This document shows positions 23,473 through 54,833 of a DNA stretch of 64,000 bases, piece by piece; positions within the stretch are counted from its first letter, which is position 1, and the number at the start of each line of letters is the position of its first letter. The position numbers were made by a program, and so were the translations under genes. Below the pieces are notes generated by a model. The model was not told the origin of the DNA. It was given only the letters and a program-made list of their open reading frames with translations, and did no database searches. Source of the stretch: Acinetobacter phage phiAB441; the sequence record PV420835.1, one strand, 5' to 3'.

Positions 23473-23643
23473 AATGAATTTTACAGAATATTTAAATTTA
23501 ATTAAAGAGATTTTAAATGATAATGGTGTTGTGTTATCAACAATGGAAGAACATCATCAGGAAGAGTTGATTAAGAAGTTTAAGAAATGTTTTAAAGATG
23601 GTGAGGATGTTGATGAGGCAATAGACAGAGTTATGGGGTGGTG
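23473..23643 (+). CDS. small hypothetical protein (below ORF-track cutoff)
   Basis: 56-aa ORF with GGAGG RBS immediately downstream of promoter. Confidence 0.35.
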
Positions 23644-24435
23644 AATGTGAAGTATATAAACAAAATTGAATATAAAAACTGTATAGGTAAAGTTTTTGCT
23701 TCAAAATACTATGGCTTATTTAAGGTTATTAGCTATCATAATAGGTCTAAGGTTGAAATTGAGTTTATTGAAACTGGTTATAGGAAATTTTGCGGATTAT
23801 CAAATATAAGAGTTGGTGAAATAAGAGACCCTTACTTTAAATCACTTTGTGGTGTTGGTGTTGTGGGTGTAAAGTATGACACGCGTTACAAAAATGAGAG
23901 CGGTAAGAATGCAATGGTTAAGCAATATAATATTTGGAGTCATATGATAAAAAGATGTTACTCTGAGAAAAGCGAAGACAAGGATAAAACATACAAAGAC
24001 TGCACTGTTTCAGAAAACTTTAAACACTACGAATACTTTTATGAATGGTGCAATAGACAGATTGGTTTTAATAACGAAGGTTGGCAACTTGATAAAGATT
24101 TATTAGTGAAAGGTAACAAGATTTATTCTGAGGACACTTGTGTATTTCTACCGCAAGAATTGAATAACTTGTTAACTAAAAGGTCTAATAATAGAGGTGA
24201 ATTTCCAATTGGTGTATGTTATAGAAAACGAGAAGGTAAATATTCATCAGCGTTAAGTTTAAACAAAGGAAACCCTACCACACTAGGATATTACAACACA
24301 CCTGAAGAAGCCTTCTATGCTTACAAGAAAGCTAAAGAATCATTTATCAAAGAACAGGCTTACAAATGGAAAGATAAAATCGATCCTAGAGCTTTTGAAG
24401 CTTTGATGAATTATAGAGTTGAAATTACAGATTGA
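23638..24435 (+). CDS. AP2-domain, degenerate-HNH homing-endonuclease-like protein (copy 1)
   Basis: C-terminal IGVCYRKREGKYSSALSL...LGYYNTPEEAFYAYKKAKE = AP2 DNA-binding fold; LDKDLLVKGNKIYSEDTCVF resembles HNH_3 core lacking the catalytic His; paralogue of 54045..54833. Confidence 0.7.
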   Translation: MVNVKYINKIEYKNCIGKVFASKYYGLFKVISYHNRSKVEIEFIETGYRKFCGLSNIRVGEIRDPYFKSLCGVGVVGVKYDTRYKNESGKNAMVKQYNIWSHMIKRCYSEKSEDKDKTYKDCTVSENFKHYEYFYEWCNRQIGFNNEGWQLDKDLLVKGNKIYSEDTCVFLPQELNNLLTKRSNNRGEFPIGVCYRKREGKYSSALSLNKGNPTTLGYYNTPEEAFYAYKKAKESFIKEQAYKWKDKIDPRAFEALMNYRVEITD

Positions 24436-26288
24436 TTATTCAGGAGAATACGTTTGTATTTCTCCTTTTTGTATTGGAGGGAAAGTTGGGAATCTGTGTT
24501 GGAAAAGAACAATGTCCGAAATGTAGTGAGGAAGGTAGAGATAGGCATGGAGACAATTTAGCCATATATGACGATGGGAGTAAATATTGTTTTTCATGTG
24601 GTCACACTGAAAGTGGTAATAGTGATTTAGGAGTTAAGGAGAGAAAATTAGTGAATTTGGAAAAAGAGTGGGAAAAGTTATTAAGTAAGAAGTTAAGTAA
24701 AGAAGAATTAGAACAAATTGGTAAAGAGGTTGGAACTGATCCTAAAGGTTGGAGAGGTTTAAAATCACAATATTTAAATGGTTTAGGTATTCGATTTAAA
24801 TATGATGAACAAGACAATCCTTGTGAAATGTTAACAGCAACAACTGTGACAATGAATAATAAAACGGAATTTGTTGGTTTTAAGTCTCGTAAGTTCCCAA
24901 AAGATTTTTCAAGTCCTAAAGGTTATGTTGGTAATTTATGTGACTTAATTGGTTATCATAAATTTAAAGGTAGTAAGCGAACATTAGTTATTGTTGAGGG
25001 TGAAGTTGACTATGCTTCAGCATTCCAAATGTACCAAATGGATATGCAATCTCGTGGTAAGAAATATGAACTCCCTGCTGTAGTTTCTGTAGTAAATGGT
25101 ATTAGTTCTATTGTTAAAGTATTTAAAGAGAATGATACAAACTTTAAGTTCTTCAAACAATTTGAACGTGTTGTCATTGCGGTTGACAATGATGATGTTT
25201 CTAATAAATTTGTTGATGAATTTATTGCAGCAATGCCACGAGAGACATTATATAGAGCTACATTACGATATAAGGATGCTAATAAATACTTGGAAGCTGG
25301 TGCTATTAGTGAATGGGTTAATGATACATATTGGAACCCTACACCGTGTTCTGTTGCGAGTATTACAGGTAGTTCTGATTGGTTATCAGATGCTAAAGAA
25401 GAATTAACAACTCCACGTTTATTGTTGCCTGACTTTGTACAGGGAATTAACAATGCAACTCGTGGTGGTTTACCTATGGGTCGTTATGTTATCTTTGCTG
25501 GTGCTTCTTCAATTGGTAAGACTGTATTTGTCAATTCAATGATTTATGATTGGATTATTCAGGACACACATCGTATTGGTGTTGTTAGTTTAGAATTATC
25601 TAGAGGTCAATATTATGTTGAGATGTTATCGCGTCATATCGGTTTAAACATTGATGATATTGATGATAATGAAGAACGTGCCACTTTGCTTGATGATTTA
25701 ACAATTGTTGAGAAAGGTAACGAATTATTCATGCGTGAAGATGGTACAAGTCGTTTCCACGTTGTTGATGATCGTGACAGTAGTATTGCTAAGATTCAAG
25801 AGTTATGTGAAGAGTTGGTAATTAAGCATAATGTTGAAGTTTTAATTCTTGATCCTATTTCTGATTTAACACAAAGACTTGACAATCAAGAACAAGTAGT
25901 ATTTAATAGCTGGATTAAATCATTTATTAAGAAACATAATGTTTTAGTCGTTGGTATCAGTCATGTTAAGAAAGGTGATAAGAACTATGACAATGGTGAT
26001 ATTCCAGATGAAGGTGATTTGATTGGTAGTTATTCTGGAGCTTCTTCTGCTGCTGCTATCTTTTTCTTGAGTCGTAATAAGATGAGTGATGACCTTGTAG
26101 AAAGAAACACAACACTCGTTACAACACCGAAGATTAGATGGACAGGTAGAACGGGTGTAGTTGATCGTGTTTTCTTTGATCATAAGACACGAAAACTTAT
26201 TAACTATTCAGATTATTTAAAGGGAAATATTTCAAGTGCTTTAGATGAGCCTAAAGACACTGAAGTTAAAGTTGATTGTGATTTTTGA
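24432..26288 (+). CDS. DNA primase-helicase (T7 gp4-like)
   Basis: N-terminal Cys4 zinc ribbon (CPKCSEEG...CFSCGH), TOPRIM (VIVEGEVD, VIAVDNDD), DnaB-like Walker A GASSIGKT and Walker B ILDPISD. Confidence 0.85.
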   Translation: MIIQENTFVFLLFVLEGKLGICVGKEQCPKCSEEGRDRHGDNLAIYDDGSKYCFSCGHTESGNSDLGVKERKLVNLEKEWEKLLSKKLSKEELEQIGKEVGTDPKGWRGLKSQYLNGLGIRFKYDEQDNPCEMLTATTVTMNNKTEFVGFKSRKFPKDFSSPKGYVGNLCDLIGYHKFKGSKRTLVIVEGEVDYASAFQMYQMDMQSRGKKYELPAVVSVVNGISSIVKVFKENDTNFKFFKQFERVVIAVDNDDVSNKFVDEFIAAMPRETLYRATLRYKDANKYLEAGAISEWVNDTYWNPTPCSVASITGSSDWLSDAKEELTTPRLLLPDFVQGINNATRGGLPMGRYVIFAGASSIGKTVFVNSMIYDWIIQDTHRIGVVSLELSRGQYYVEMLSRHIGLNIDDIDDNEERATLLDDLTIVEKGNELFMREDGTSRFHVVDDRDSSIAKIQELCEELVIKHNVEVLILDPISDLTQRLDNQEQVVFNSWIKSFIKKHNVLVVGISHVKKGDKNYDNGDIPDEGDLIGSYSGASSAAAIFFLSRNKMSDDLVERNTTLVTTPKIRWTGRTGVVDRVFFDHKTRKLINYSDYLKGNISSALDEPKDTEVKVDCDF

Positions 26289-26319
26289 GGTGATTTTTCA
26301 CCTCTTTTAATTTGGAGGA

Positions 26320-27411
26320 ATGTGTAGAAAAATGACTAATGAAGTTAAATATTTTGAAGGTGATTGGATATGGGATATTGAGACTTTCCCAAATATAGTC
26401 ACTTTTGCATTTCTTAAAGCAGATAAATCTGAGAGAAAGTTATTTGAAATATCTAAACGTACTAATGATTTGGATTTATTTTTAGATTTTTGTCGTGAAT
26501 CTAAAATAAATGATTATAGATTTGTAGGTTTTAACTCTATCTCTTTTGACTATGTTGTGTTACATTGGATTTTAAAAAGAGCAATGGATGCTAAAGCTAA
26601 GAGAGAGAAGTTAAAGCTCACTGCTAATCAAATCTACAAATATGCAATGAAAGTTATTGAGAGCAAGAAAGATGGTCAGTTTGGTATTAATGTAAAAGTT
26701 GAAGATCACATTATTCGTCAACTAGATTTATTTAAAATTAATCATTATGACAACAAAGCTAAGATGACTTCTTTGAAGTTGTTGGAGTTTAATATGCGAT
26801 TGGACAACATTAGTGATTTACCTTTTCCTGTTGGTAAAACTTTATCAAGTGAAGAGATGGATACTTTAATTGAATATAACTTTACAGACGTTGGTGCTAC
26901 ACATGACTTCTATCAATTGAATTATGATTCTATTAAATTCCGTGCTGAACTTACGCAAAAATATGGATTTGATTGTACAAACTTAAATGATTCGAATATT
27001 GGTGAGCAATTCTTTATCCGTAAGATTGAAGCAAAACAACCAGATGCTTTTTATACATATGATGTTGTATCAGGTAAAAAGAAACTAAAGAAAACACCAC
27101 GACCATTTGTTAAAATTGCTGATTGTTTATTTGATTATTTAAATTTTAAAACACCTGAAATGCAAGCTTTACATAATTGGTTTAAGAAGCAAGTAATTAC
27201 AGAAACAAAGGGTGTGTTTAGTGATATTGAAGAACATAATTTAGGTGATTTAGCGAAGTATTGTGAACTTGTTCAAAAGGAAGTTAAGTTTAAAGACAAT
27301 CCTTCTGAGAAAGAGAAGCAGGATTTTTTGAAAGAACACCCTTTGGGTTGGTTTGAGGTTAGAGAGTTAAAGACACTTGAAACATTAAAAGATAAGATGG
27401 TAACTCTGTAA
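26320..27411 (+). CDS. DNA polymerase family B, N-terminal 3'-5' exonuclease portion
   Basis: Exo I DIETFPN, Exo II FVGFNSISFDYVVL; terminates at 27411 while the downstream polymerase frame is already open from 27396 (-1 frame). Confidence 0.75.
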   Translation: MCRKMTNEVKYFEGDWIWDIETFPNIVTFAFLKADKSERKLFEISKRTNDLDLFLDFCRESKINDYRFVGFNSISFDYVVLHWILKRAMDAKAKREKLKLTANQIYKYAMKVIESKKDGQFGINVKVEDHIIRQLDLFKINHYDNKAKMTSLKLLEFNMRLDNISDLPFPVGKTLSSEEMDTLIEYNFTDVGATHDFYQLNYDSIKFRAELTQKYGFDCTNLNDSNIGEQFFIRKIEAKQPDAFYTYDVVSGKKKLKKTPRPFVKIADCLFDYLNFKTPEMQALHNWFKKQVITETKGVFSDIEEHNLGDLAKYCELVQKEVKFKDNPSEKEKQDFLKEHPLGWFEVRELKTLETLKDKMVTL

Positions 27412-27527
27412 AAGAGAATTTCATTGATGATAAAGGTAGAGTTAAACAAAGAGTAGTAAAGGTTCCAAAGAAGGCTTATTATGGTTGCTACAAGATCGCT
27501 GAGACACTTAATGTTATTATTGGTGGT

Positions 27528-28085
27528 ATGAGGGTGGATTATGGTGTTGGTGGTCTACACGGTGCTGTACAGGGACATCATAAGAAATCTGATGACAAGT
27601 CAATTTTGTCTTGGGATGTTGCGAGTATGTATCCTAACATTGCTATTGCTAACCGTGTTTATCCTGAACATTTGAATGAAAGTTTTTGTGATAGTTATGA
27701 GGAATTTTATAATGAACGTAAAAAGTATCCTAAAGGTACAGGTGAGAACTTGGCGATTAAGCTGGGTTTGAACTGTGTCTACGGAAAATCCAACAGTGAG
27801 TTTAGTTGTTTCTATGACTCTGCGTATACTATGAAGATTACAGTAAATGGACAATTGACATTATCAATGTTACTTGAACGACTTGTTTTGGATTGTCAAG
27901 TTAAACCGTTGATGGTTAACACAGATGGCTTTGAAGTTATTATTGATAACGATAAGATTGATAAAGCAAATGATATTGTAAGTCGTTGGGAGAAATATGT
28001 TGGTCTACAAATGGAAGGTGTTGAATATTCTGACATGTTTATTGCCGATGTAAATAATTATTTTGCTATTTATGTGGAGGATTGA
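27528..28085 (+). CDS. DNA polymerase family B, palm portion (motifs A, B, C)
   Basis: motif A DVASMYPNIAIA, motif B KLGLNCVYGKSN, motif C MVNTDGFEVI; frame open upstream to 27396 with no ATG. Confidence 0.7.
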   Translation: MRVDYGVGGLHGAVQGHHKKSDDKSILSWDVASMYPNIAIANRVYPEHLNESFCDSYEEFYNERKKYPKGTGENLAIKLGLNCVYGKSNSEFSCFYDSAYTMKITVNGQLTLSMLLERLVLDCQVKPLMVNTDGFEVIIDNDKIDKANDIVSRWEKYVGLQMEGVEYSDMFIADVNNYFAIYVED

Positions 28086-28738
28086 TGCAGTATATTGGAT
28101 TTAGAACAAAACAAACTGGAATATATAAGATTACTAATACGATTAATGGTAAAATTTATATTGGAAGGACTTCAAATTTTAATCGAAGATATGTACAATA
28201 TTTGTATGATTTTGAAAATCAGAGGTCTAGGTCAGTTAATCAACATTTTTTAAATTCTGTTAATAAATATGGTTTAGATAATTTTGAGTTTGAGGAACTT
28301 TACTATTGTTTTACTGAAGATGAATCTTTAGTTTTAGAAATTGAATTTATGAATATGTATAAATCTACGAATAGTGAATTTGGTTATAATAAAAGACAAG
28401 ATTCAGAAGGTGGTATGATTGTATCTAATGAAACTTCTTTGAAAATATCTAACAGGTTGAAAAAAGAGTGGAGGTTAGGAGTTAGAGATGGGTATTCAGA
28501 AAAGCTAAAGGCTTCTTGGAAAAGTAGAGATAGAGTTAAGCAAAGTGAATTGTTTTCAAAGTCGTTAACAAAATGGTATTATGTTGTTAATGAAAATTAT
28601 GATAATAAACTATTTTATAAAGACCTTGTTGACATGGGTTTGAAAAATTCAATAGGTAAATTTTCTGAAAAGAAATCAAATAAAGTTGTGTTTAAGGATT
28701 TTATTATAGAGAGATTTGAGTATGAAGACGAAAGCTAA
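28082..28738 (+). CDS. GIY-YIG homing endonuclease inserted in DNA polymerase gene
   Basis: GIYKITNTINGKIYIGRTSNFNRRYVQY ... NKYGLDNFEFEEL; ATGA overlap with upstream pol fragment, overlaps downstream pol fragment. Confidence 0.85.
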   Translation: MMQYIGFRTKQTGIYKITNTINGKIYIGRTSNFNRRYVQYLYDFENQRSRSVNQHFLNSVNKYGLDNFEFEELYYCFTEDESLVLEIEFMNMYKSTNSEFGYNKRQDSEGGMIVSNETSLKISNRLKKEWRLGVRDGYSEKLKASWKSRDRVKQSELFSKSLTKWYYVVNENYDNKLFYKDLVDMGLKNSIGKFSEKKSNKVVFKDFIIERFEYEDES

Positions 28739-29174
28739 AGGTAGATATGCTTATAAAGAAATGAAGGAAATGGATTTGGCTTTCATGCACAAGAATCACT
28801 CAGCATTAGTTGTACCTATGGCAGTTGAACATGAGTTGTTAGGTCGTGGTTATGCTGAAGATTTTATTCGTAGTCATAAAGATAAGTTTGATTTCATGCT
28901 TAGAACTAAAGTTCCGCGTGGTTCAAGACTGGTTCTTGAAATGGATGGTGAGGATATTGAGCAACAAAACATTTGTCGTTATTACGTTTCTGAAGATGGT
29001 GGGTATTTAACAAAGATTATGCCACCACTTAAAGAAGGTGATGAAGATAGACGTATGAGTATTGAAAGTGGTATTAAAGTAAAAACGTGTAATGATATTA
29101 ATGATTTCTCTTGGGATATTAATTATGATTACTATGTTGAGCAAGCAGATAAATTGCTTGAATTTTTTCGTTAA
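28716..29174 (+). CDS. DNA polymerase family B, C-terminal (KxY/thumb) portion
   Basis: KAKGRYAYK resembles KKRY(A) KxY motif that follows motif C in family B enzymes; position directly after the HEG. Confidence 0.5.
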   Translation: MSMKTKAKGRYAYKEMKEMDLAFMHKNHSALVVPMAVEHELLGRGYAEDFIRSHKDKFDFMLRTKVPRGSRLVLEMDGEDIEQQNICRYYVSEDGGYLTKIMPPLKEGDEDRRMSIESGIKVKTCNDINDFSWDINYDYYVEQADKLLEFFR

Positions 29175-29187
29175 TTAGGAGATGTAA

Positions 29188-30261
29188 ATGTTAAAATTTA
29201 AAAAAGGTGATGAAGTTGTCGTTACTGGTTTTATTAATGCACTTGCTGAAGAGTATGGAACTCTAGGTGAGGTTGGTGTTGTTGAAGTTGTGGATGGTTC
29301 AGAGATTCCATATTTTGTAAAACTAAAATCTGTTACAGGAGGTTCTGGTGGATTATGGTTTAAGGAGGAGAATTTAAAATCAGCTAAAGAATTTGAGAAA
29401 CACAATCCTGAACTTAAAATCGGTGATGAGGTTGTTATTTTAGAGCATCCTGTTTTAAAAGGAGGTAAAGGAATTAGTTATCCTGAATCAATGCAGAAAG
29501 AAATTGGATCAAAACAAACTATTGTTGAGATTCATGAGCATGGTTATAGATTGTCGAATCATTGGAGTTATGAAGCGAAGTATTTGCAGAAAGTTACTAA
29601 TGATATTGATAAATCACAACTTCTTAAACGAGAAATTGAGGTGGGAGATTTAGTTACAGTAATTTCTCTTGAAGAAACAAGACAAGAGTATGGTATTGTT
29701 AGTCCAATGAAAAAAGTTGGAGATTCTTTTATTGTAAAAGGTGTTCATAAAGATAACGAAGATGATTTAATTGAGATTTTTGATGAAGGTAATTGGTCAT
29801 ACGATTCTCGTGATTTAGTAATTTTACAGAAAGCTTCAGATATGAAAGAGCGTAAATTAACTCCTATTGATTTGAAATTACCTGTTCATTGTTCATGGGA
29901 TTTAGCTGCTACTGATGAGGGTAAGTCAGTAAGTATCGTGTTAGATGATACAATTCCTACTATCCAACCTATTGAGTCAAATGGTGGAAGTAGTGATTAT
30001 TATTTTACTAAATTACCGAAATGGTTGATTGATCGAATTGTAGAAACTGGTGGTATTGAAGTTAAAGACATTGTTCAATTTGTATTTGATAATGATGCTC
30101 ATGCAAAAGATATCATCAAGGCACAGAAACGTATTATTGAGCAGCGTAAAGGTGGTGGTAAAGCTGGATTAAAACCACTATACGATTACAATAAGATTGT
30201 TTTCTTTGCTGAAGATCAGTTACGAGTTGCTAAGAATAATCTTGACGAGAAATCTGAATAA
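29188..30261 (+). CDS. hypothetical protein with three KOW/SH3-like GDEVV repeats
   Basis: 357 aa; internal repeats KKGDEVVVTG / KIGDEVVILE / EVGDLVTVIS. Confidence 0.5.
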   Translation: MLKFKKGDEVVVTGFINALAEEYGTLGEVGVVEVVDGSEIPYFVKLKSVTGGSGGLWFKEENLKSAKEFEKHNPELKIGDEVVILEHPVLKGGKGISYPESMQKEIGSKQTIVEIHEHGYRLSNHWSYEAKYLQKVTNDIDKSQLLKREIEVGDLVTVISLEETRQEYGIVSPMKKVGDSFIVKGVHKDNEDDLIEIFDEGNWSYDSRDLVILQKASDMKERKLTPIDLKLPVHCSWDLAATDEGKSVSIVLDDTIPTIQPIESNGGSSDYYFTKLPKWLIDRIVETGGIEVKDIVQFVFDNDAHAKDIIKAQKRIIEQRKGGGKAGLKPLYDYNKIVFFAEDQLRVAKNNLDEKSE

Positions 30262-32155: not shown

Positions 32156-33379
32156 TTGTTAATCAAGAGGGAGGATGTTTTGGATGTAAGTAAATTGTTT
32201 GATGGTTCTAGAAAGATTGAAGTCAAACAAGAGAAACTTGGTGATGAGTATTTCTTAATGGAACCACATAACGAAAAACCTAACAGTTGTCCTCATTCTG
32301 TTTTTGATGTATCTGATTACAATGAAAATGATGTTGTTGCTTTAATTGATGGAGATTGGTTGACATTCTCTGCAACATCAAATGAAATGGAAAGGTTCAT
32401 CACTTGTGAGATTGATGGTGAAGTTCATGAGTTTTCAGGATATGAAAAATTAAAGGATTATCTAATTAGTCAAGGAAGATTAGATGAATATAAGGATATT
32501 GAAACCAAGAAGGGACAAAGAAACAAAGAACTTTACGTTTCTTTAGGTAATGTTAAAAAGAAAGTATCTTCAATTGTAAAAGAAATTGGTGCTAACAAAG
32601 TTATTATTGCTTTAGGGAGTACGGGTAACAAACGTCTTGATTTACCACTACCTAAGTATCATGGAAGGTATAAGGGTAATCGTGATGATGGTTGGATTCC
32701 TGAAACATTACCAGCATGTAAAGAATGGACACGTAAGAAATGGAAAACTTGGTGGTCTGTTGATAAAGAAACTGATGATGATGTTACTATTATTTTTCAC
32801 ATGTTATTAAACAAAGGTGTTAAAGTCTATGTCTGTGGGATAGACAAAGATTACAATCAGGAACATTGGGGTGGTTTATACTTAATTGGACACCATAAAC
32901 AACCAACTTGGTACGATAACACAGAAGAAAATGCTTTAGGTTATCTAGAGATTGTTGAACGAGAGGTTAAGGATCGTAAAACAAAGAAAGGAACTGGAAG
33001 GTTTACATCTGATGTTAAAGGTCATGGTGATATGTTCTTAGCTTACCAAATCCTTTCTGAAGACAAGGCAGATAATTACTCAGGTAAAAGTTTCTTAAAG
33101 GAATTTGGAACTAAGAAGAAGTTTGGTGATAAAGAAGTTGTTAAATTATTATCTAAGTGTAAATCTAGAAAAGAACTTTGGCAGACTGTTTACAGTGTAT
33201 TTAAAAAGTATTTACCAAAAGAATTTGAATATGTTGCTTGGAATGATGAGGTAATTAAATCATCTCCTTTACATGCCTGTGATTTATTTTATAAGTGTGC
33301 ATGTATGATGAAGTATCAAGGATTTGAAGCTAATATTACAGACTTGTTTGATGAATTAGGAGTTGATTATGACACCTGA
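32156..33379 (+). CDS. 5'-3' exonuclease / flap endonuclease (RNase H-like)
   Basis: VALIDGDWLTF (FEN N-domain Asp cluster), YKGNRD, GIDKDY. Confidence 0.6.
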   Translation: MLIKREDVLDVSKLFDGSRKIEVKQEKLGDEYFLMEPHNEKPNSCPHSVFDVSDYNENDVVALIDGDWLTFSATSNEMERFITCEIDGEVHEFSGYEKLKDYLISQGRLDEYKDIETKKGQRNKELYVSLGNVKKKVSSIVKEIGANKVIIALGSTGNKRLDLPLPKYHGRYKGNRDDGWIPETLPACKEWTRKKWKTWWSVDKETDDDVTIIFHMLLNKGVKVYVCGIDKDYNQEHWGGLYLIGHHKQPTWYDNTEENALGYLEIVEREVKDRKTKKGTGRFTSDVKGHGDMFLAYQILSEDKADNYSGKSFLKEFGTKKKFGDKEVVKLLSKCKSRKELWQTVYSVFKKYLPKEFEYVAWNDEVIKSSPLHACDLFYKCACMMKYQGFEANITDLFDELGVDYDT

Positions 33380-33941
33380 TGAAAAAATAGATGAAATAAT
33401 CGAAAGATACCCTGAATTCTGGAAAACAAAATCAAGTTACATGTCTTACATTCGTGGTGGTGTGAGACAGGGTTTGTGGAACAAAAACAAGATCAAGATC
33501 TTAAAGATTAAGAACAATCGTGTACAAATCCCTAATCCAAATCCAAAAGGGAAGAAGGAGACAGTGTGGGGTGGTGAGTGTGAAGTTTGTAAAAATCTTT
33601 TCCCTACAGCTTCGTTACAAGTAGATCATATTCGAGATAAAGGAAGTAGCTTAAAGAATTTTTCTGATGTATCTAAATTCATTGAGGATATGATTCTTAT
33701 CACAGAAGATGATTTACGTATTGTTTGTAAGAATTGTCATGAAATTATCAGTCACGCACAGAAGAAAGGTTGTTCTTTTGAAGAAGCAAGAGTTCAAAAA
33801 GAATTTATTGAGATAAAAAAACAGAAGAAAGTGCTTGACAAACTTGTTAGCTTGGGGGTAAACTCAATACCTAAGCTAAAGAAAGATCAAGAATCTTTGT
33901 TATTAGAGTTGTTGTTAGGAGAAGTTAATGAAAATCAGTAA
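33363..33941 (+). CDS. HNH endonuclease
   Basis: CEVC...VDHIRDKGSS...N...CKNCH arrangement (Zn-finger plus HNH). Confidence 0.6.
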   Translation: MIMTPDEKIDEIIERYPEFWKTKSSYMSYIRGGVRQGLWNKNKIKILKIKNNRVQIPNPNPKGKKETVWGGECEVCKNLFPTASLQVDHIRDKGSSLKNFSDVSKFIEDMILITEDDLRIVCKNCHEIISHAQKKGCSFEEARVQKEFIEIKKQKKVLDKLVSLGVNSIPKLKKDQESLLLELLLGEVNENQ

Positions 33942-36487: not shown

Positions 36488-37021
36488 GTGACTGAAGAGT
36501 GGAGAGATGTTGTTGGATACGAAGAATATTTTATGATAAGTTCTTTTGGTAATGTATTTTCAAAAAGAACAAATAAGATATTAAAACAGAATACAACAGA
36601 CAGAGGTTATAAGACAGTAGCAACAAAAATTGGTGGAAGAAGTGGAAAAAATTTGTGCTTTAAAATTCACAGATTAGTTGCGGAAGCGTTTATAGAAAAT
36701 TTTGAAAATAAGCCTTATGTTAATCACATTAATTCAAAAAGAAATGATAACCGTGTTGAAAACTTGGAGTGGTGTACCGCAAAAGAGAACTTTGATCATG
36801 GTCTTTCATTTGGAAACATTAAAAACAACCAACTTTCAAAAAGTAGTTTCGTTGGAAGGAAGTTAAAAGATGATGATGTTATTAACATTCGAAATAATTA
36901 TGTGAAAGGTTGTCATAAAAACGGACTAAGAGCTTTAGCTAGAAAATACGGTGTTAATAAAAATACCATAAAAGCAGTTGTTAGCAGTGAGACATATAAA
37001 GATATAGGAGAAAGAGAGTGA
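36488..37021 (+). CDS. HNH homing endonuclease (HNH_3 with N-terminal NUMOD4-like module)
   Basis: WRDVVGYEEYFMISSFGNV ... VNHINSKRNDNRVENLEWCTAKEN; GTG start with TAGGAG RBS. Confidence 0.8.
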   Translation: MTEEWRDVVGYEEYFMISSFGNVFSKRTNKILKQNTTDRGYKTVATKIGGRSGKNLCFKIHRLVAEAFIENFENKPYVNHINSKRNDNRVENLEWCTAKENFDHGLSFGNIKNNQLSKSSFVGRKLKDDDVINIRNNYVKGCHKNGLRALARKYGVNKNTIKAVVSSETYKDIGERE

Positions 37022-37209
37022 CAGAAAAATTTTCAGAGATGACAGAAACAAGTAATGTAGAATTAACACCACAACAACAATATAAAAACATTTTAGAAAA
37101 AGCACTTCAATCAGCAATTTTATTAAACAAAATCATTCGTGGTAAATCTGTTGAAGAGTATTCAGATGAAGAATTATCTGAAGCAATTTTACACAATCTA
37201 ATGTTGTAA
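37018..37209 (+). CDS. hypothetical protein
   Basis: 63 aa. Confidence 0.4.
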   Translation: MTEKFSEMTETSNVELTPQQQYKNILEKALQSAILLNKIIRGKSVEEYSDEELSEAILHNLML

Positions 37210-37265: not shown

Positions 37266-37706
37266 TTGGATGGTCAAGTAGATGTAATCTATACACTCTC
37301 GTATTTACATTACTTAATTGAAGAAGCTAAACGTAGAGATTTTGTTGAAATTAACTATAAGCACACCAACTTAATTTTAATGTTAGGTAATGTTGTATTG
37401 TCAAATCTGTCTACCGATGACGATGGGTATTATGACACATTAGAGGAAGCTGTTGATCGAATTATTGAAAACAATATGTCTAAAGTGACAACTGATGTTG
37501 AATATTTTAAAACATGGGAATCACCAAAAGGTGAAAACTTAATTCCTAAGTCAACAGTTGTTGATGGAACACGTTATTATTTATTAGTTAATGCTGAAGG
37601 AAAGTGTCGTAAACCAGAACATTTTGTTGGTGTTGATTTAACAGATTTAGCAGAACGTTTAGATAAACAATGGAATGGGGTTACAAATGGCAAAGAAGAA
37701 AACTAA
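37266..37706 (+). CDS. putative MazG-like nucleotide pyrophosphohydrolase
   Basis: LIEEAKRR and TLEEAVDRIIEN resemble EExx(E/D) metal-binding helices of all-alpha NTP-PPases; weak. Confidence 0.35.
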   Translation: MDGQVDVIYTLSYLHYLIEEAKRRDFVEINYKHTNLILMLGNVVLSNLSTDDDGYYDTLEEAVDRIIENNMSKVTTDVEYFKTWESPKGENLIPKSTVVDGTRYYLLVNAEGKCRKPEHFVGVDLTDLAERLDKQWNGVTNGKEEN

Positions 37707-44973: not shown

Positions 44974-45151
44974 TTTAATAAAAGTGTTAGATGGTGGAGA
45001 TTTTCGTGATCGTTGGGAGGGGTTGTGTATCACCCTTGAAGATTATGAAAGTATTAATTGTAATAATTATGAAGATGAATTGCATCATATTTTTGAATAT
45101 CATTCATTTGAATTTGATGAAACTAAACATGAATATTGGGAGATTGAATGA
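44966..45151 (+). CDS. hypothetical acidic protein
   Basis: 61 aa. Confidence 0.4.
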   Translation: MTDLIKVLDGGDFRDRWEGLCITLEDYESINCNNYEDELHHIFEYHSFEFDETKHEYWEIE

Positions 45152-45717
45152 GTTTACAAATTAATCTGGTTGAGTTCTTCCCTGTAAAAGAATCTGATGA
45201 TTATGTTATAAACAAAGATGGTGTGATTTACAGATTGAGTAATAATAGATTTATTACAGGTAAAATTGTTAAAGGTCGATATCCGAGAGTTAATTTTGTT
45301 CTAGATGGAAAGCGAGTAACTAGAGCAATTCATAGGTTGTTGGCTGAAGTTTTTATCGAACAACCACAAGGTAAGGACTACGTTAATCATATCGATGGAG
45401 ATAAAACAAATTATAATTTAGATAACTTAGAGTGGGTGACTCGAAGTGAAAATATGAAACACTCAATACATGTGCTGGGCAATCCAAAACCGCCAAGTCA
45501 TTTAGGTAAGACTGGAAAATTATCAAAGTTATCAAAACCAGTTAAAGCTACTCACTGTAAAACAGGTGAGGTTATTATCTATGAAGGTATTTGTGATGCT
45601 GTAAGGCAGTCTGGTAATTTATTTCATAAGTTTGGTATACAACAAAGTATTAATGGTAAGTACAAACATCATCAAGGATATGTTTGGGAATTTTTAAAAG
45701 GAGAAGAGAGTGTTTGA
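45148..45717 (+). CDS. HNH homing endonuclease (HNH_3 + NUMOD4-like)
   Basis: DDYVINKDGVIYRL ... VNHIDGDKTNYNLDNLEWVTRSENM; overlaps start of thyX. Confidence 0.8.
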   Translation: MSLQINLVEFFPVKESDDYVINKDGVIYRLSNNRFITGKIVKGRYPRVNFVLDGKRVTRAIHRLLAEVFIEQPQGKDYVNHIDGDKTNYNLDNLEWVTRSENMKHSIHVLGNPKPPSHLGKTGKLSKLSKPVKATHCKTGEVIIYEGICDAVRQSGNLFHKFGIQQSINGKYKHHQGYVWEFLKGEESV

Positions 45718-46393
45718 TTTTAATAAAGTAGAAGTGATTGGTGTAACAACACCAACTGTTGATTATATTCCAGATAGTGAGGGGATTTTGAGTTATGCTG
45801 CACGTGTATCTAATCCAAGTAATCAAACAAGTTTTGATACAGCAGCTAAGTTGTTATCATACTGCGTAAAACATAAACATTATTCTGTTTTTGAAACAGT
45901 GAATGTTGTTATGGAGATTGAAACACCACGTGACATTGCTCGTCAAATCTTGCGTCACCGTTCATTCTCTTTCCAAGAGTTTAGTCAACGTTATGCACAA
46001 TCAACGAACTTCATTACCCGTGAATGTCGTTTACAAGATGAAAAGAATCGTCAGAATAGTATTGATGTGTCAGCAACAGAAGGTGAGACCCAGGCAGGTT
46101 TAATTAACGATTGGTATTTGATGCAACAAGAAGTCTTAGAGGTTGTTCAAGCTAACTATCAAGCTGCTTTAGGTATGGGCATTGCAAAAGAAGTTGCTCG
46201 TACTATTCTTCCAGAAGGTTTGACAATGAGTCGTATGTATATGAATGGTACAGTGCGCTCATGGTTACACTTCATTAATGTTCGAGATGATGAAGGTGTT
46301 GCTCAGAAGGAAGTTGTTGATGTTGCTCGTAAGGCTAAGAAAGAAATCTTAAAACACTTCCCATTTTTAGAAGAAGTTATTGGAGTTGTTTAA
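45710..46393 (+). CDS. thyX: flavin-dependent thymidylate synthase
   Basis: exact ThyX signature RHRSFSFQEFSQR (RHRxxSxxxxSxR). Confidence 0.9.
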   Translation: MFDFNKVEVIGVTTPTVDYIPDSEGILSYAARVSNPSNQTSFDTAAKLLSYCVKHKHYSVFETVNVVMEIETPRDIARQILRHRSFSFQEFSQRYAQSTNFITRECRLQDEKNRQNSIDVSATEGETQAGLINDWYLMQQEVLEVVQANYQAALGMGIAKEVARTILPEGLTMSRMYMNGTVRSWLHFINVRDDEGVAQKEVVDVARKAKKEILKHFPFLEEVIGVV

Positions 46394-49909: not shown

Positions 49910-50191
49910 ATGAACACAAATGAATTAAAATCTACAATCTTATCAACACATGCTAGATTGTTTAAAGTTGTATTTAAAAAGTCAGATGGTACAATTCGTA
50001 CTTTGTATGGTAAGGTGGGTGTTGAACGTTTCAAATCTAAGAAACCAAACAAACGTAAAGTTAGTAAATCAAATGAAAACATAATTCGTGTGTTTGATGT
50101 TGAGAAGAAAGAATATCGAGCATTCAATTTGTCAAGTGTCATTGAGTTCTCATGTAATAATAAACAATTTAAATTAGGAGAAGTTAAATAA
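49910..50191 (+). CDS. small basic (Lys-rich) protein, possible nucleic-acid binding
   Basis: start trimmed to ATG 49910 because track start 49844 lies inside the promoter; KSKKPNKRKVSKS stretch. Confidence 0.45.
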   Translation: MNTNELKSTILSTHARLFKVVFKKSDGTIRTLYGKVGVERFKSKKPNKRKVSKSNENIIRVFDVEKKEYRAFNLSSVIEFSCNNKQFKLGEVK

Positions 50192-50601
50192 TGGAATTAG
50201 CATTGTTAATTTGGTTTGCAAGTGTGTCAACTGGTATTGCAAAGCTATTTGGAACATTAGCTTTTATTATGATTTTACTGGTGATAGTTATTGTGTTCTT
50301 TAGTGCAATGTACTATCTTATAGAAGAAGAAGTTTTAAAAATAGTTGAGTATAAAAAATCTATTATTGGAGTTTTTATAGTCGGTTTGATTTTTGCTATA
50401 ATTTCTGTACTAATTCCAGATGAACGAACAGTTTACCTAATGGCTGGTGGATATGCTGGACAGAAAATTGTAGAGTCAGATAAGTTTCAGAAGAGTACAA
50501 ATGATGTTTATGAAATTGTTAACATGAAACTTGAACAAATTAAACGTGATATGCAAGAAGATTTAAATGGTGAACAGACACCAGAAGGAGAAAAGAAATG
50601 A
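50191..50601 (+). CDS. membrane protein (2-3 TM)
   Basis: 136 aa, ATG overlaps upstream stop. Confidence 0.5.
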   Translation: MELALLIWFASVSTGIAKLFGTLAFIMILLVIVIVFFSAMYYLIEEEVLKIVEYKKSIIGVFIVGLIFAIISVLIPDERTVYLMAGGYAGQKIVESDKFQKSTNDVYEIVNMKLEQIKRDMQEDLNGEQTPEGEKK

Positions 50602-54044: not shown

Positions 54045-54833
54045 CTAATCATTGATGTCAACTTGATAATTCATTAAAGCTTGAAAAGCTCTTGGATCAA
54101 TCTTGTCTTTCCATTTTAAAGCTTGTTCTTTAATAAAATCTTCCTTAGCTTTCTTATAAGCATAGAAAGCTTCTTCAGGTGTGTTGAAAAAACCAACAGT
54201 CATGACTGTACTATTACCTCTTCCGCAAGTTGCTGTAAATTTTTTGTTTGTTTTATGATAGGACACACCAATTGGGTACTGACCTCTGGATTTATTATTC
54301 TTAACCAAAAGATTATTCAATTCTTGTGGTAAGAAAACACAAGTGTCTTCGCTGTAAATTTTATTACCTTTTATTAGTAAATCCTTATCTAAAGCCCAGC
54401 CTGTATTTCCAAATCCAATTTGATTATTACACCACTCATAAAAATATTCATAGTGCTTAAAATTTTCTGATACATAACAACTTTCATATGTTGGATATTT
54501 TTCTCTTGAACTTTCATTATAACAACGATTCAGTAAACCTCTCCAAATACTATACTCTGGTCTAATTTTTCTGTTACCAAATACATCTTTATATGTTGGT
54601 GAATATTTATCTCCAGTAATTCCAACACCATAAACTGAAGGTATTTGATAGTCTTTAACCTTACCTGTTCTAATATCACTCATTCCGCAAACAGTTTTAT
54701 AACCAGTTATTAAAAATTCAATTTCAACTGTATATTTATCAGTATAATTTTTAATAACAAAACGCCCACTGTTAGTTGACTTGAAAATCTTACCGACACA
54801 GTTTTTGTAATCAACATCATTTAAATATTTCAT
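54045..54833 (-). CDS. AP2-domain, degenerate-HNH homing-endonuclease-like protein (copy 2)
   Basis: C-terminal 150 aa about 80% identical to 23638..24435 product (SENFKHYEYFYEWCN...NTPEEAFYAYKKAKE...KWKDKIDPRAF). Confidence 0.7.
   Translation of the reverse strand: MKYLNDVDYKNCVGKIFKSTNSGRFVIKNYTDKYTVEIEFLITGYKTVCGMSDIRTGKVKDYQIPSVYGVGITGDKYSPTYKDVFGNRKIRPEYSIWRGLLNRCYNESSREKYPTYESCYVSENFKHYEYFYEWCNNQIGFGNTGWALDKDLLIKGNKIYSEDTCVFLPQELNNLLVKNNKSRGQYPIGVSYHKTNKKFTATCGRGNSTVMTVGFFNTPEEAFYAYKKAKEDFIKEQALKWKDKIDPRAFQALMNYQVDIND

Follow-up and report, generated by a model that had tools for sequence, protein, structure and literature searches.

A family B DNA polymerase split by a GIY-YIG homing endonuclease gene, with an additional frame break, in Acinetobacter phage phiAB441

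How many polypeptides make up the DNA polymerase of Acinetobacter phage phiAB441, when its coding sequence is spread over three open reading frames (ORFs) and shares the locus with a homing endonuclease gene (HEG)? We addressed this question in a 64,000-nucleotide (nt) stretch of sequence record PV420835.1, hereafter the window; all coordinates are window positions and residue numbers refer to the polymerase. A first-pass annotation had described the locus as a family B polymerase fragmented by a frame change and an inserted GIY-YIG HEG, and our analysis confirmed its ORF coordinates and frames, including a −1 frame open from 27396 with its first start codon at 27528. The window comes from a relative of the Acinetobacter myophages. 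Its best nucleotide match was phage Ab3-TPeters (92%), while phages B9 and TaPaz matched it at the nucleotide level only at the 3' end. We consider it likely that the locus encodes a two-gene family B replicase split by the HEG, and that the break at 27396, a one-base deletion, arose either as a sequencing or assembly error or as a very recent mutation.

The three pieces, with one base restored, make up a single family B DNA polymerase (PolB); both the enzyme and the phage clade that it comes from are divergent. They matched consecutive stretches of PHROG 1252 'DNA polymerase' (47–316, 315–508 and 512–650 of 663), which bears out the earlier reading of the three ORFs as parts of one enzyme, and Ab3-TPeters encodes the same polymerase as a single coding sequence (CDS) of 737 amino acids (aa). 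A profile of 40 homologues compared with the PDB matched 27 archaeal PolB chains across motifs A–C, with a best E of 8.9e-8. The AlphaFold2 (AF2) model of the repaired 588-aa N-terminal subunit had a mean pLDDT of 90.3, and when it was compared with the PDB using Foldseek all of the top 50 matches were family B polymerases (probability 1.00, E ~1e-11).

The catalytic motifs are distributed over the first two ORFs. Exo I (DxE), Exo II (NxxxFD) and Exo III (YxxxD) all lie in the first, where E21, D77, Y186 and D190 were invariant among 55 homologues and D19, N72 and F76 were conserved in at least 90% of them. The second contains motif A (DVASMYPN) and motif B (KLGLNCVYG), which align to those of Thermococcus PolB, and motif C in the form NTDG; in the same 55 homologues D433, S436, Y438 and P439 of motif A, K481, N485, Y488 and G489 of motif B, and N534, T535, D536 and G537 of motif C were invariant. 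The placement of Exo I and II in the first ORF and of motifs A, B and C in the second thus stood, but the KxY-like motif that had been assigned to the third ORF was off by one strand. When aligned to the KKKYAV of Thermococcus PolB, the KxY position turned out to be an NxY with variant residues (N579 and Y581) at the end of the second ORF, and the 'KGRYAY' of the third is the strand that follows it.

Some observations weigh against this assignment. Across the whole clade, Asn stands in place of the first Asp of the canonical DTD, Pfam PF00136 remained below its cutoff (13.6 bits vs 23), and single-sequence matches to the PDB were weak. Given the score of PF00136, membership in PolB rests on the profile, fold and motif evidence. 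The C-terminal piece was beta-rich in a first AF2 model, built for the fused 737 aa from a mixed alignment, in which pLDDT fell below 50 over residues 384–502. This low-confidence model was set aside for conclusions, so that the 'thumb' label of the C-terminal piece is a label of position only.

Next to be considered is the interruption that follows motif C. Here window 28066–28767 takes the place of 58 nt of Ab3-TPeters, a net insertion of ~640 nt that is essentially all ORF. The junction ...NNYFAIYVED / (M)KTKAKGRYAY aligned residue for residue with ...NSYVALYIDG KIKQKGAYEY of Ab3-TPeters, and the HEG insertion (28083–28724) falls exactly at a beta-hairpin turn, ~45 residues past motif C, and costs the polymerase no residue. 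The second ORF (27528–28085, 185 aa, in the frame open from 27396) ends in ...YVED with a TGA at 28083–28085, which the ATG of the HEG overlaps (TGATG). The ATG of the C-terminal piece at 28722 lies within the HEG, 17 nt before its 3' end and behind a purine-rich stretch, and is kept in L006, a Logan contig with 89% nucleotide identity to the window. The inserted ORF scored 29.8 bits against Pfam GIY-YIG PF01541 (cutoff 22.6), matched PHROG 314 with an E of 4e-27, and matched the catalytic domain of I-TevI (1mk0) over residues 10–102 with an E of 2.2e-6, with the GIY, YIG, Arg, Glu and Asn residues aligned. By these domain matches it is a canonical free-standing GIY-YIG homing endonuclease with predicted cleavage activity; the Pfam and I-TevI matches confirmed the earlier identification of such a gene after motif C, overlapping both of its flanks. 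The features of the locus are collected in Table 1.

Table 1. Features of the polymerase locus in the window.
Feature	Position	Strand	Remarks
Polymerase N-terminal subunit, first part	26320..27396	+	Exonuclease domain up to Lys359; Exo I–III
One-base deletion site	27394..27397	+	Window AAGAT vs AAGGAT (Lys-Asp) in Ab3-TPeters and L006
Polymerase N-terminal subunit, second part	27396..28085	+	Beta-hairpin insertion, palm, short fingers; motifs A, B, C, NxY strand
Free-standing GIY-YIG homing endonuclease	28085 (ATG) or 28082 (TTG)..28738	+	217–218 aa; N-terminal domain I-TevI-like
Polymerase C-terminal subunit	28722 (ATG) or 28716 (TTG)..29174	+	150–152 aa; strand after the hairpin and C-terminal (thumb-position) domain
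Terminator-like hairpin	26287..26304	+	Between the primase-helicase and polymerase genes

Phage polymerase genes often harbour inteins or introns with GIY-YIG HEGs, and a group I intron or an intein after motif C, from which splicing would restore a single polypeptide, was also weighed. A search of Rfam over 26000–29500 gave 0 matches even at E<=1, the HEG ORF takes up the inserted DNA, and neither junction contains additional in-frame sequence. Moreover, a stop codon ends the upstream piece, the downstream one starts at a conserved ATG of its own, and in L007, a 98-kb contig from ENA, the two polymerase cistrons are 2 nt apart, with nothing to splice. The absence of Rfam matches and the stop and start codons at the junctions speak against this explanation, and we accord it next to no probability.

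The HEG split at 28083–28724 is genuine and under selection. The HEG is absent from Ab3-TPeters and B9 but present in the window and in L006, which encodes a 580-aa N-terminal piece, a 215-aa GIY-YIG protein and a 150-aa C-terminal piece with identical junction residues. Between the window and L006 dN/dS was 0.021 for the second ORF, 0.079 for the third and 0.197 for the HEG. Over all the dN/dS values obtained, the polymerase segments ranged from 0.02 to 0.17. Both halves are intact and complete when compared with the unsplit homologue and are under purifying selection.

The same site is split in other phages. In Klebsiella phage KpTRp1 a 506-aa piece, a 219-aa HEG 42% identical to that of the window and a 197-aa piece follow each other at the aligned site, and in Yersinia phage fEV-1 the same HEG family occupies it (g48c / g47c / g46c). 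The crAss-like phage cr3_1 has this HEG family between gp48 and gp46, at a junction too diverged to align confidently. Overall, the HEGs of these three phages showed 34–42% identity to that of the window. Other occupants were also found: an HNH_3 gene in L008 (an NCBI contig) and two 69-aa ORFs in phage phiPMW. L007 has no occupant, its C-terminal cistron starting with an ATG 2 nt after the stop of the preceding piece. Among the best 150 cluster representatives of an exhaustive search (clusters at 50% identity; our own count), ~35 were stand-alone proteins whose start lies at most a few residues from that of the third ORF and ~70 were full-length. In a word-indexed search all 114 matches were short (97–260 aa, most of them 143–260); it returned no full-length polymerases and missed even the 580-aa piece of L006, and its matches cannot give a split-to-unsplit ratio.

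Two features of the homologues are worth recording beside this. The C-terminal pieces of L008 (6186–6680) and phiPMW (L005, 3596–4144) have ~18 extra N-terminal residues, MNTVDIRQSLFDLAKSG and VEHKEVVDILRQMVKDG respectively, that are absent from unsplit polymerases; by analogy, this could be an added interaction segment such as that described for the split NrdA of phage Aeh1. In addition, many distant phage homologues, for example those of PaMx10, Skure, slur01 and Vid5, matched only ~395–733, the polymerase domain, and are annotated as 'DNA polymerase B region' or 'subunit'. Their alignment suggests that versions lacking the exonuclease, or with a separately encoded exonuclease, may exist in other phage groups.

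Sequence identity changes abruptly around the insertion. On either side of the HEG, ~20 codons are common to the window and L006 and differ from those of Ab3-TPeters and B9. When compared with B9, identity was 50–77% over the N-terminal 1.7 kb but 96–98% from ~28780 to the end of the gene at 29174, and this sharp mosaic boundary coincides with the HEG insertion site. This pattern fits repeated double-strand-break repair and co-conversion at the site, although it is not proof of it. Phage Phab24 matched the last 42 codons only (93%), in a place where it has no annotated feature.

The second interruption, the frame change at 27396, is of a different nature. The first ORF (26320–27411, 363 aa; candidate starts ATG 26320 and ATG 26332, with GGAGGA at 26313–26318) continues past Lys359 with a missense tail, MVTL, up to the TAA at 27409–27411. 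At this place Ab3-TPeters reads AAAGATAAGGATGG and the window AAAGATAAGATGG, with one base fewer, and L006 encodes ...KDKDGNSVKEN... in a single frame. Restoring the missing base gives one ORF and the 588-aa N-terminal subunit. The first-pass annotation had named a single-base indel artefact at about 27400 that restores one ORF as a finding that would overturn its reading, and a one-base deletion with that effect is what we found there. The break is a deletion specific to this sequence and most likely reflects a sequencing or assembly artefact, or else a mutation of very recent date; it is not an old third split.

The first-pass annotation had also listed a programmed −1 frameshift. Fusion of the first two ORFs by such ribosomal frameshifting, or by transcriptional slippage, has in its favour that a −1 shift at the AAG or past it would recreate exactly the ancestral ...KDKDGNSV.... 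The −1 frame has a TAA at 27393–27395, and a fusion would be possible only within 27396–27411. This interval (G ATG GTA ACT CTG TAA) contains no slippery X XXY YYZ pattern or homopolymer, and the only slippery-looking sequence, A AAA G, lies upstream of that TAA, where it would be unproductive. The fold of the 101 nt from 27370 to 27470 (−7.5 kcal/mol, z = +1.38) is less structured than its shuffles and provides no stimulatory structure. Furthermore, the feature is absent from Ab3-TPeters, L006, B9 and phiPMW, the close relatives reading through in one uninterrupted frame. We regard a programmed frameshift at 27396 as essentially excluded.

Selection on the stretch downstream of the break bears on whether the pieces could be made separately. 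In the frame of the second ORF there is no ATG, GTG or TTG in the 132 nt between 27396 and 27528. The 44 start-less codons (27396–27527) differ from those of Ab3-TPeters by 11 synonymous and 3 non-synonymous changes, a dN/dS of 0.055 that equals that of the flanking ORFs. Purifying selection on the stretch is thus strong, which implies that its translation in this frame either continues or ended only very recently. Should the deletion be real, the polymerase might consist of three pieces, the exonuclease (residues 1–363), the palm and fingers, and the C-terminal domain, with the middle one produced by termination-reinitiation at ATT 27423, which lies 12 nt past the stop of the first ORF behind AAGAG, or at ATG 27528. 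In the AF2 model the break falls in a loop (residues 356–364) of a beta-hairpin insertion that phiPMW wholly lacks, and many distant phage homologues match only from ~395, near Met404 (27528); both would suit such an arrangement. On the other hand, ATT is a very weak initiator codon and the 132 nt offer none of the usual ones. A start at Met404 would remove 44 conserved residues, which form strands 365–401 in the model and whose low dN/dS points to translation until very recently. Neither close relative, Ab3-TPeters or L006, has the break, which also tells against the third functional piece considered in the first-pass annotation, and among the best 120 matches no N-terminal piece of such length was found on a long contig. 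We consider a functional three-piece polymerase very improbable. The related idea that a real deletion represents a freshly arisen second split, giving a three-polypeptide replicase in a clade adapted to separate subunits, has if anything a slightly slimmer chance.

The origin of the one-base deletion was examined by comparison with other records and with the rest of the window. Look-ups of the exact products of the first ORF, of the third ORF from both of its starts and of the primase-helicase found no record, and patterns of the junction with and without the G had no match in viral, genome or metagenome contigs. On the unfavourable side, no independent copy of the genome was found in which the deletion could be checked and, with neither such a copy nor raw reads at hand, an artefact and a real recent mutation cannot be told apart. 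Long homopolymers are the classic context for sequencing errors, and neither this deletion nor a second one at ~37188 lies in one, a further point on the same side. Fragmentation of phage gene calls by indels and by selfish elements is common in both cases (PMC8351571).

The second isolated one-base deletion emerged from the window-wide comparison with Ab3-TPeters, in which ~44 kb could be aligned. It splits a MazG-like nucleotide pyrophosphohydrolase into ORFs 37018–37209 and 37266–37706, the window reading GCAATTTTAC and Ab3-TPeters GCAATCTTTAC, with no start codon for ~80 nt. Two such lesions in ~44 kb argue for sequence errors or for a decaying genome. A real and inactivating deletion would turn this polymerase allele into a very young pseudogene, in a genome that is defective or in the minority, such as a variant in a mixed population. 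The MazG-like gene bears the same kind of lesion and the polymerase break shows no frameshift or reinitiation signals, as this explanation would have it. However, a genome without a replicative polymerase should not propagate alone, and a second polymerase gene did not come to notice in the window, where no systematic search for one was made. Beyond the single base, moreover, none of the pieces shows other signs of decay. We regard a pseudogene as unlikely.

The reverse case was also observed: a 136-aa ORF of the window (50191–50601) corresponds to two overlapping CDSs in different frames in Ab3-TPeters (73058–73469), so that frame-breaking differences are present in both records. Both frame-broken genes of the window adjoin a HEG, the MazG-like break lying ~170 nt from an HNH gene and the polymerase break ~690 nt from the GIY-YIG gene. 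The former is a NUMOD4 + HNH_3 HEG ORF (36488–37021) directly upstream of the MazG-like gene; it overlaps the start of that gene and does not align to Ab3-TPeters. The proximity of both breaks to HEGs may be a coincidence or may reflect error-prone repair.

Mobile endonuclease genes are dense in the window. Two AP2-domain ORFs (both below the Pfam cutoff), one HNH ORF and one HNH_3 ORF were found at 23638–24435 (+), 33363–33941 (+), 45148–45717 (+) and 54045–54833 (−), the HNH_3 ORF abutting the ThyX gene (45710–46393). Upstream of the polymerase, the primase-helicase gene (DnaB_C, Toprim) ends at 26288, and a spacer of 31 nt only, with the terminator-like hairpin, separates the two genes. A rho-independent terminator is annotated at the same intergenic position in phage B9, after its primase/helicase gene. 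A T5orf172/DUF723-type (HEG-like) gene separates primase-helicase from polymerase in L006 (1619–2446), B9 (L002, 2089–3159) and L007 (3094–4023).

Based on these results we propose the following model. The N-terminal subunit would have 588 aa, with the base restored, and comprise the exonuclease, the NxY strand, a palm that carries motifs A and C and short fingers that carry motif B, and the C-terminal subunit (150 aa) would contribute the next beta-strand and the C-terminal domain. A single transcript presumably carries all three cistrons, with their translation coupled, and the two polypeptides would reassemble non-covalently, by analogy with gp43A/B of phage 25, NrdA of Aeh1 and PolB of Methanothermobacter thermautotrophicus. 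The endonuclease is expected to cut HEG-less alleles near the site and to spread with ~20 flanking codons per side; in the Ab3-TPeters allele the cut would lie near ...GTAAATTCGTATGTTGCGTTATATATTGACGGTAAAATTAAAC..., and the HEG-containing allele of the window itself would be resistant. The split enzyme is probably functional as two separate polypeptides. Of the earlier suggestion that the phage assembles its replicase from separate polypeptides, we retain the assembly of two halves as probable and drop the third functional piece.

In practical terms, the second ORF, the HEG and the third ORF are best labelled as the genes of a two-subunit polymerase with a mobile HEG between them, and not as a pseudogene. 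More generally, the hairpin after the KxY-equivalent strand appears as a recurrent hotspot for splits and insertions in a widespread phage PolB clade, for which we found no description. It spans phages of Acinetobacter, Klebsiella, Yersinia and Pseudomonas and, less securely aligned, crAss-like phages. Together these phages provide a natural series for studying the breaking-up of essential genes by HEGs, the ways in which the pieces keep their function, and the levelling of one gene end among diverged phages by HEG-driven gene conversion. This extends known biology and adds no new principle. Split family B polymerases and HEG-fractured genes are already established.

Finally, we compared the locus with known split genes. 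According to the accounts in PMC3061061 and PMC2988022, which summarise Petrov et al. (2006, 2010), the gp43 splits of the T4-like Aeromonas and Acinetobacter phages 133, 44RR, 31, 25 and 65 lie in the fingers tip, and in phage 25 the gp43A and gp43B halves, associated with the GIY-YIG-type HEG seg43(25), co-purify and are active. These systems resemble the window in being two-cistron family B replicases, with a free-standing seg-type HEG between the cistrons in some genomes and a short spacer alone in others. They differ from it in the position of the split, which the window has in the hairpin that follows the KxY-equivalent strand, ~45 residues past motif C, and in belonging to another clade; the polymerase of the window is of PHROG 1252, with short fingers and an NTDG motif C, and is known here from sequence. 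The first-pass annotation had placed the insertion at the same spot as that of split gp43 in T4-like phages such as Aeh1, which these sources do not bear out: in Aeromonas phage Aeh1 the HEG-split gene is nrdA. This seems to be the case that its author had in mind. The nrdA gene is split by mobE and its products reassemble (PMC3045599, PMC2988022). Like the polymerase gene of the window it is a 'gene in pieces', with a free-standing HEG in a conserved region of an essential gene, but it encodes a ribonucleotide reductase and its HEG is of the HNH family.

A natural two-subunit PolB is known from M. thermautotrophicus (Kelman et al. 1999, cited in PMC3061061). As summarised there, it is split within the palm, C-terminal to the fingers, as in the window, ~83 residues past Pfu 467 and near motif C, while the window split falls at ~residue 600 in the alignment to Thermococcus PolB; unlike those of the window, its genes are described as lying 85 kb apart and with no HEG. 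Further parallels are found among phages whose polymerases are 28–45% identical to that of the window (phiPMW, cr3_1, KpTRp1 and fEV-1) and whose splits are annotated but undiscussed; the phiPMW paper makes no mention of a split polymerase. The polymerases of phiPMW (gp196/gp199), the Klebsiella Jedunavirus KpTRp1 and fEV-1 (g48c/g46c) are split at the same hairpin as that of the window. phiPMW differs in having two small ORFs in place of the HEG, whereas KpTRp1, fEV-1 and cr3_1 (gp48/gp46) carry, like the window, the same GIY-YIG family between their polymerase pieces.

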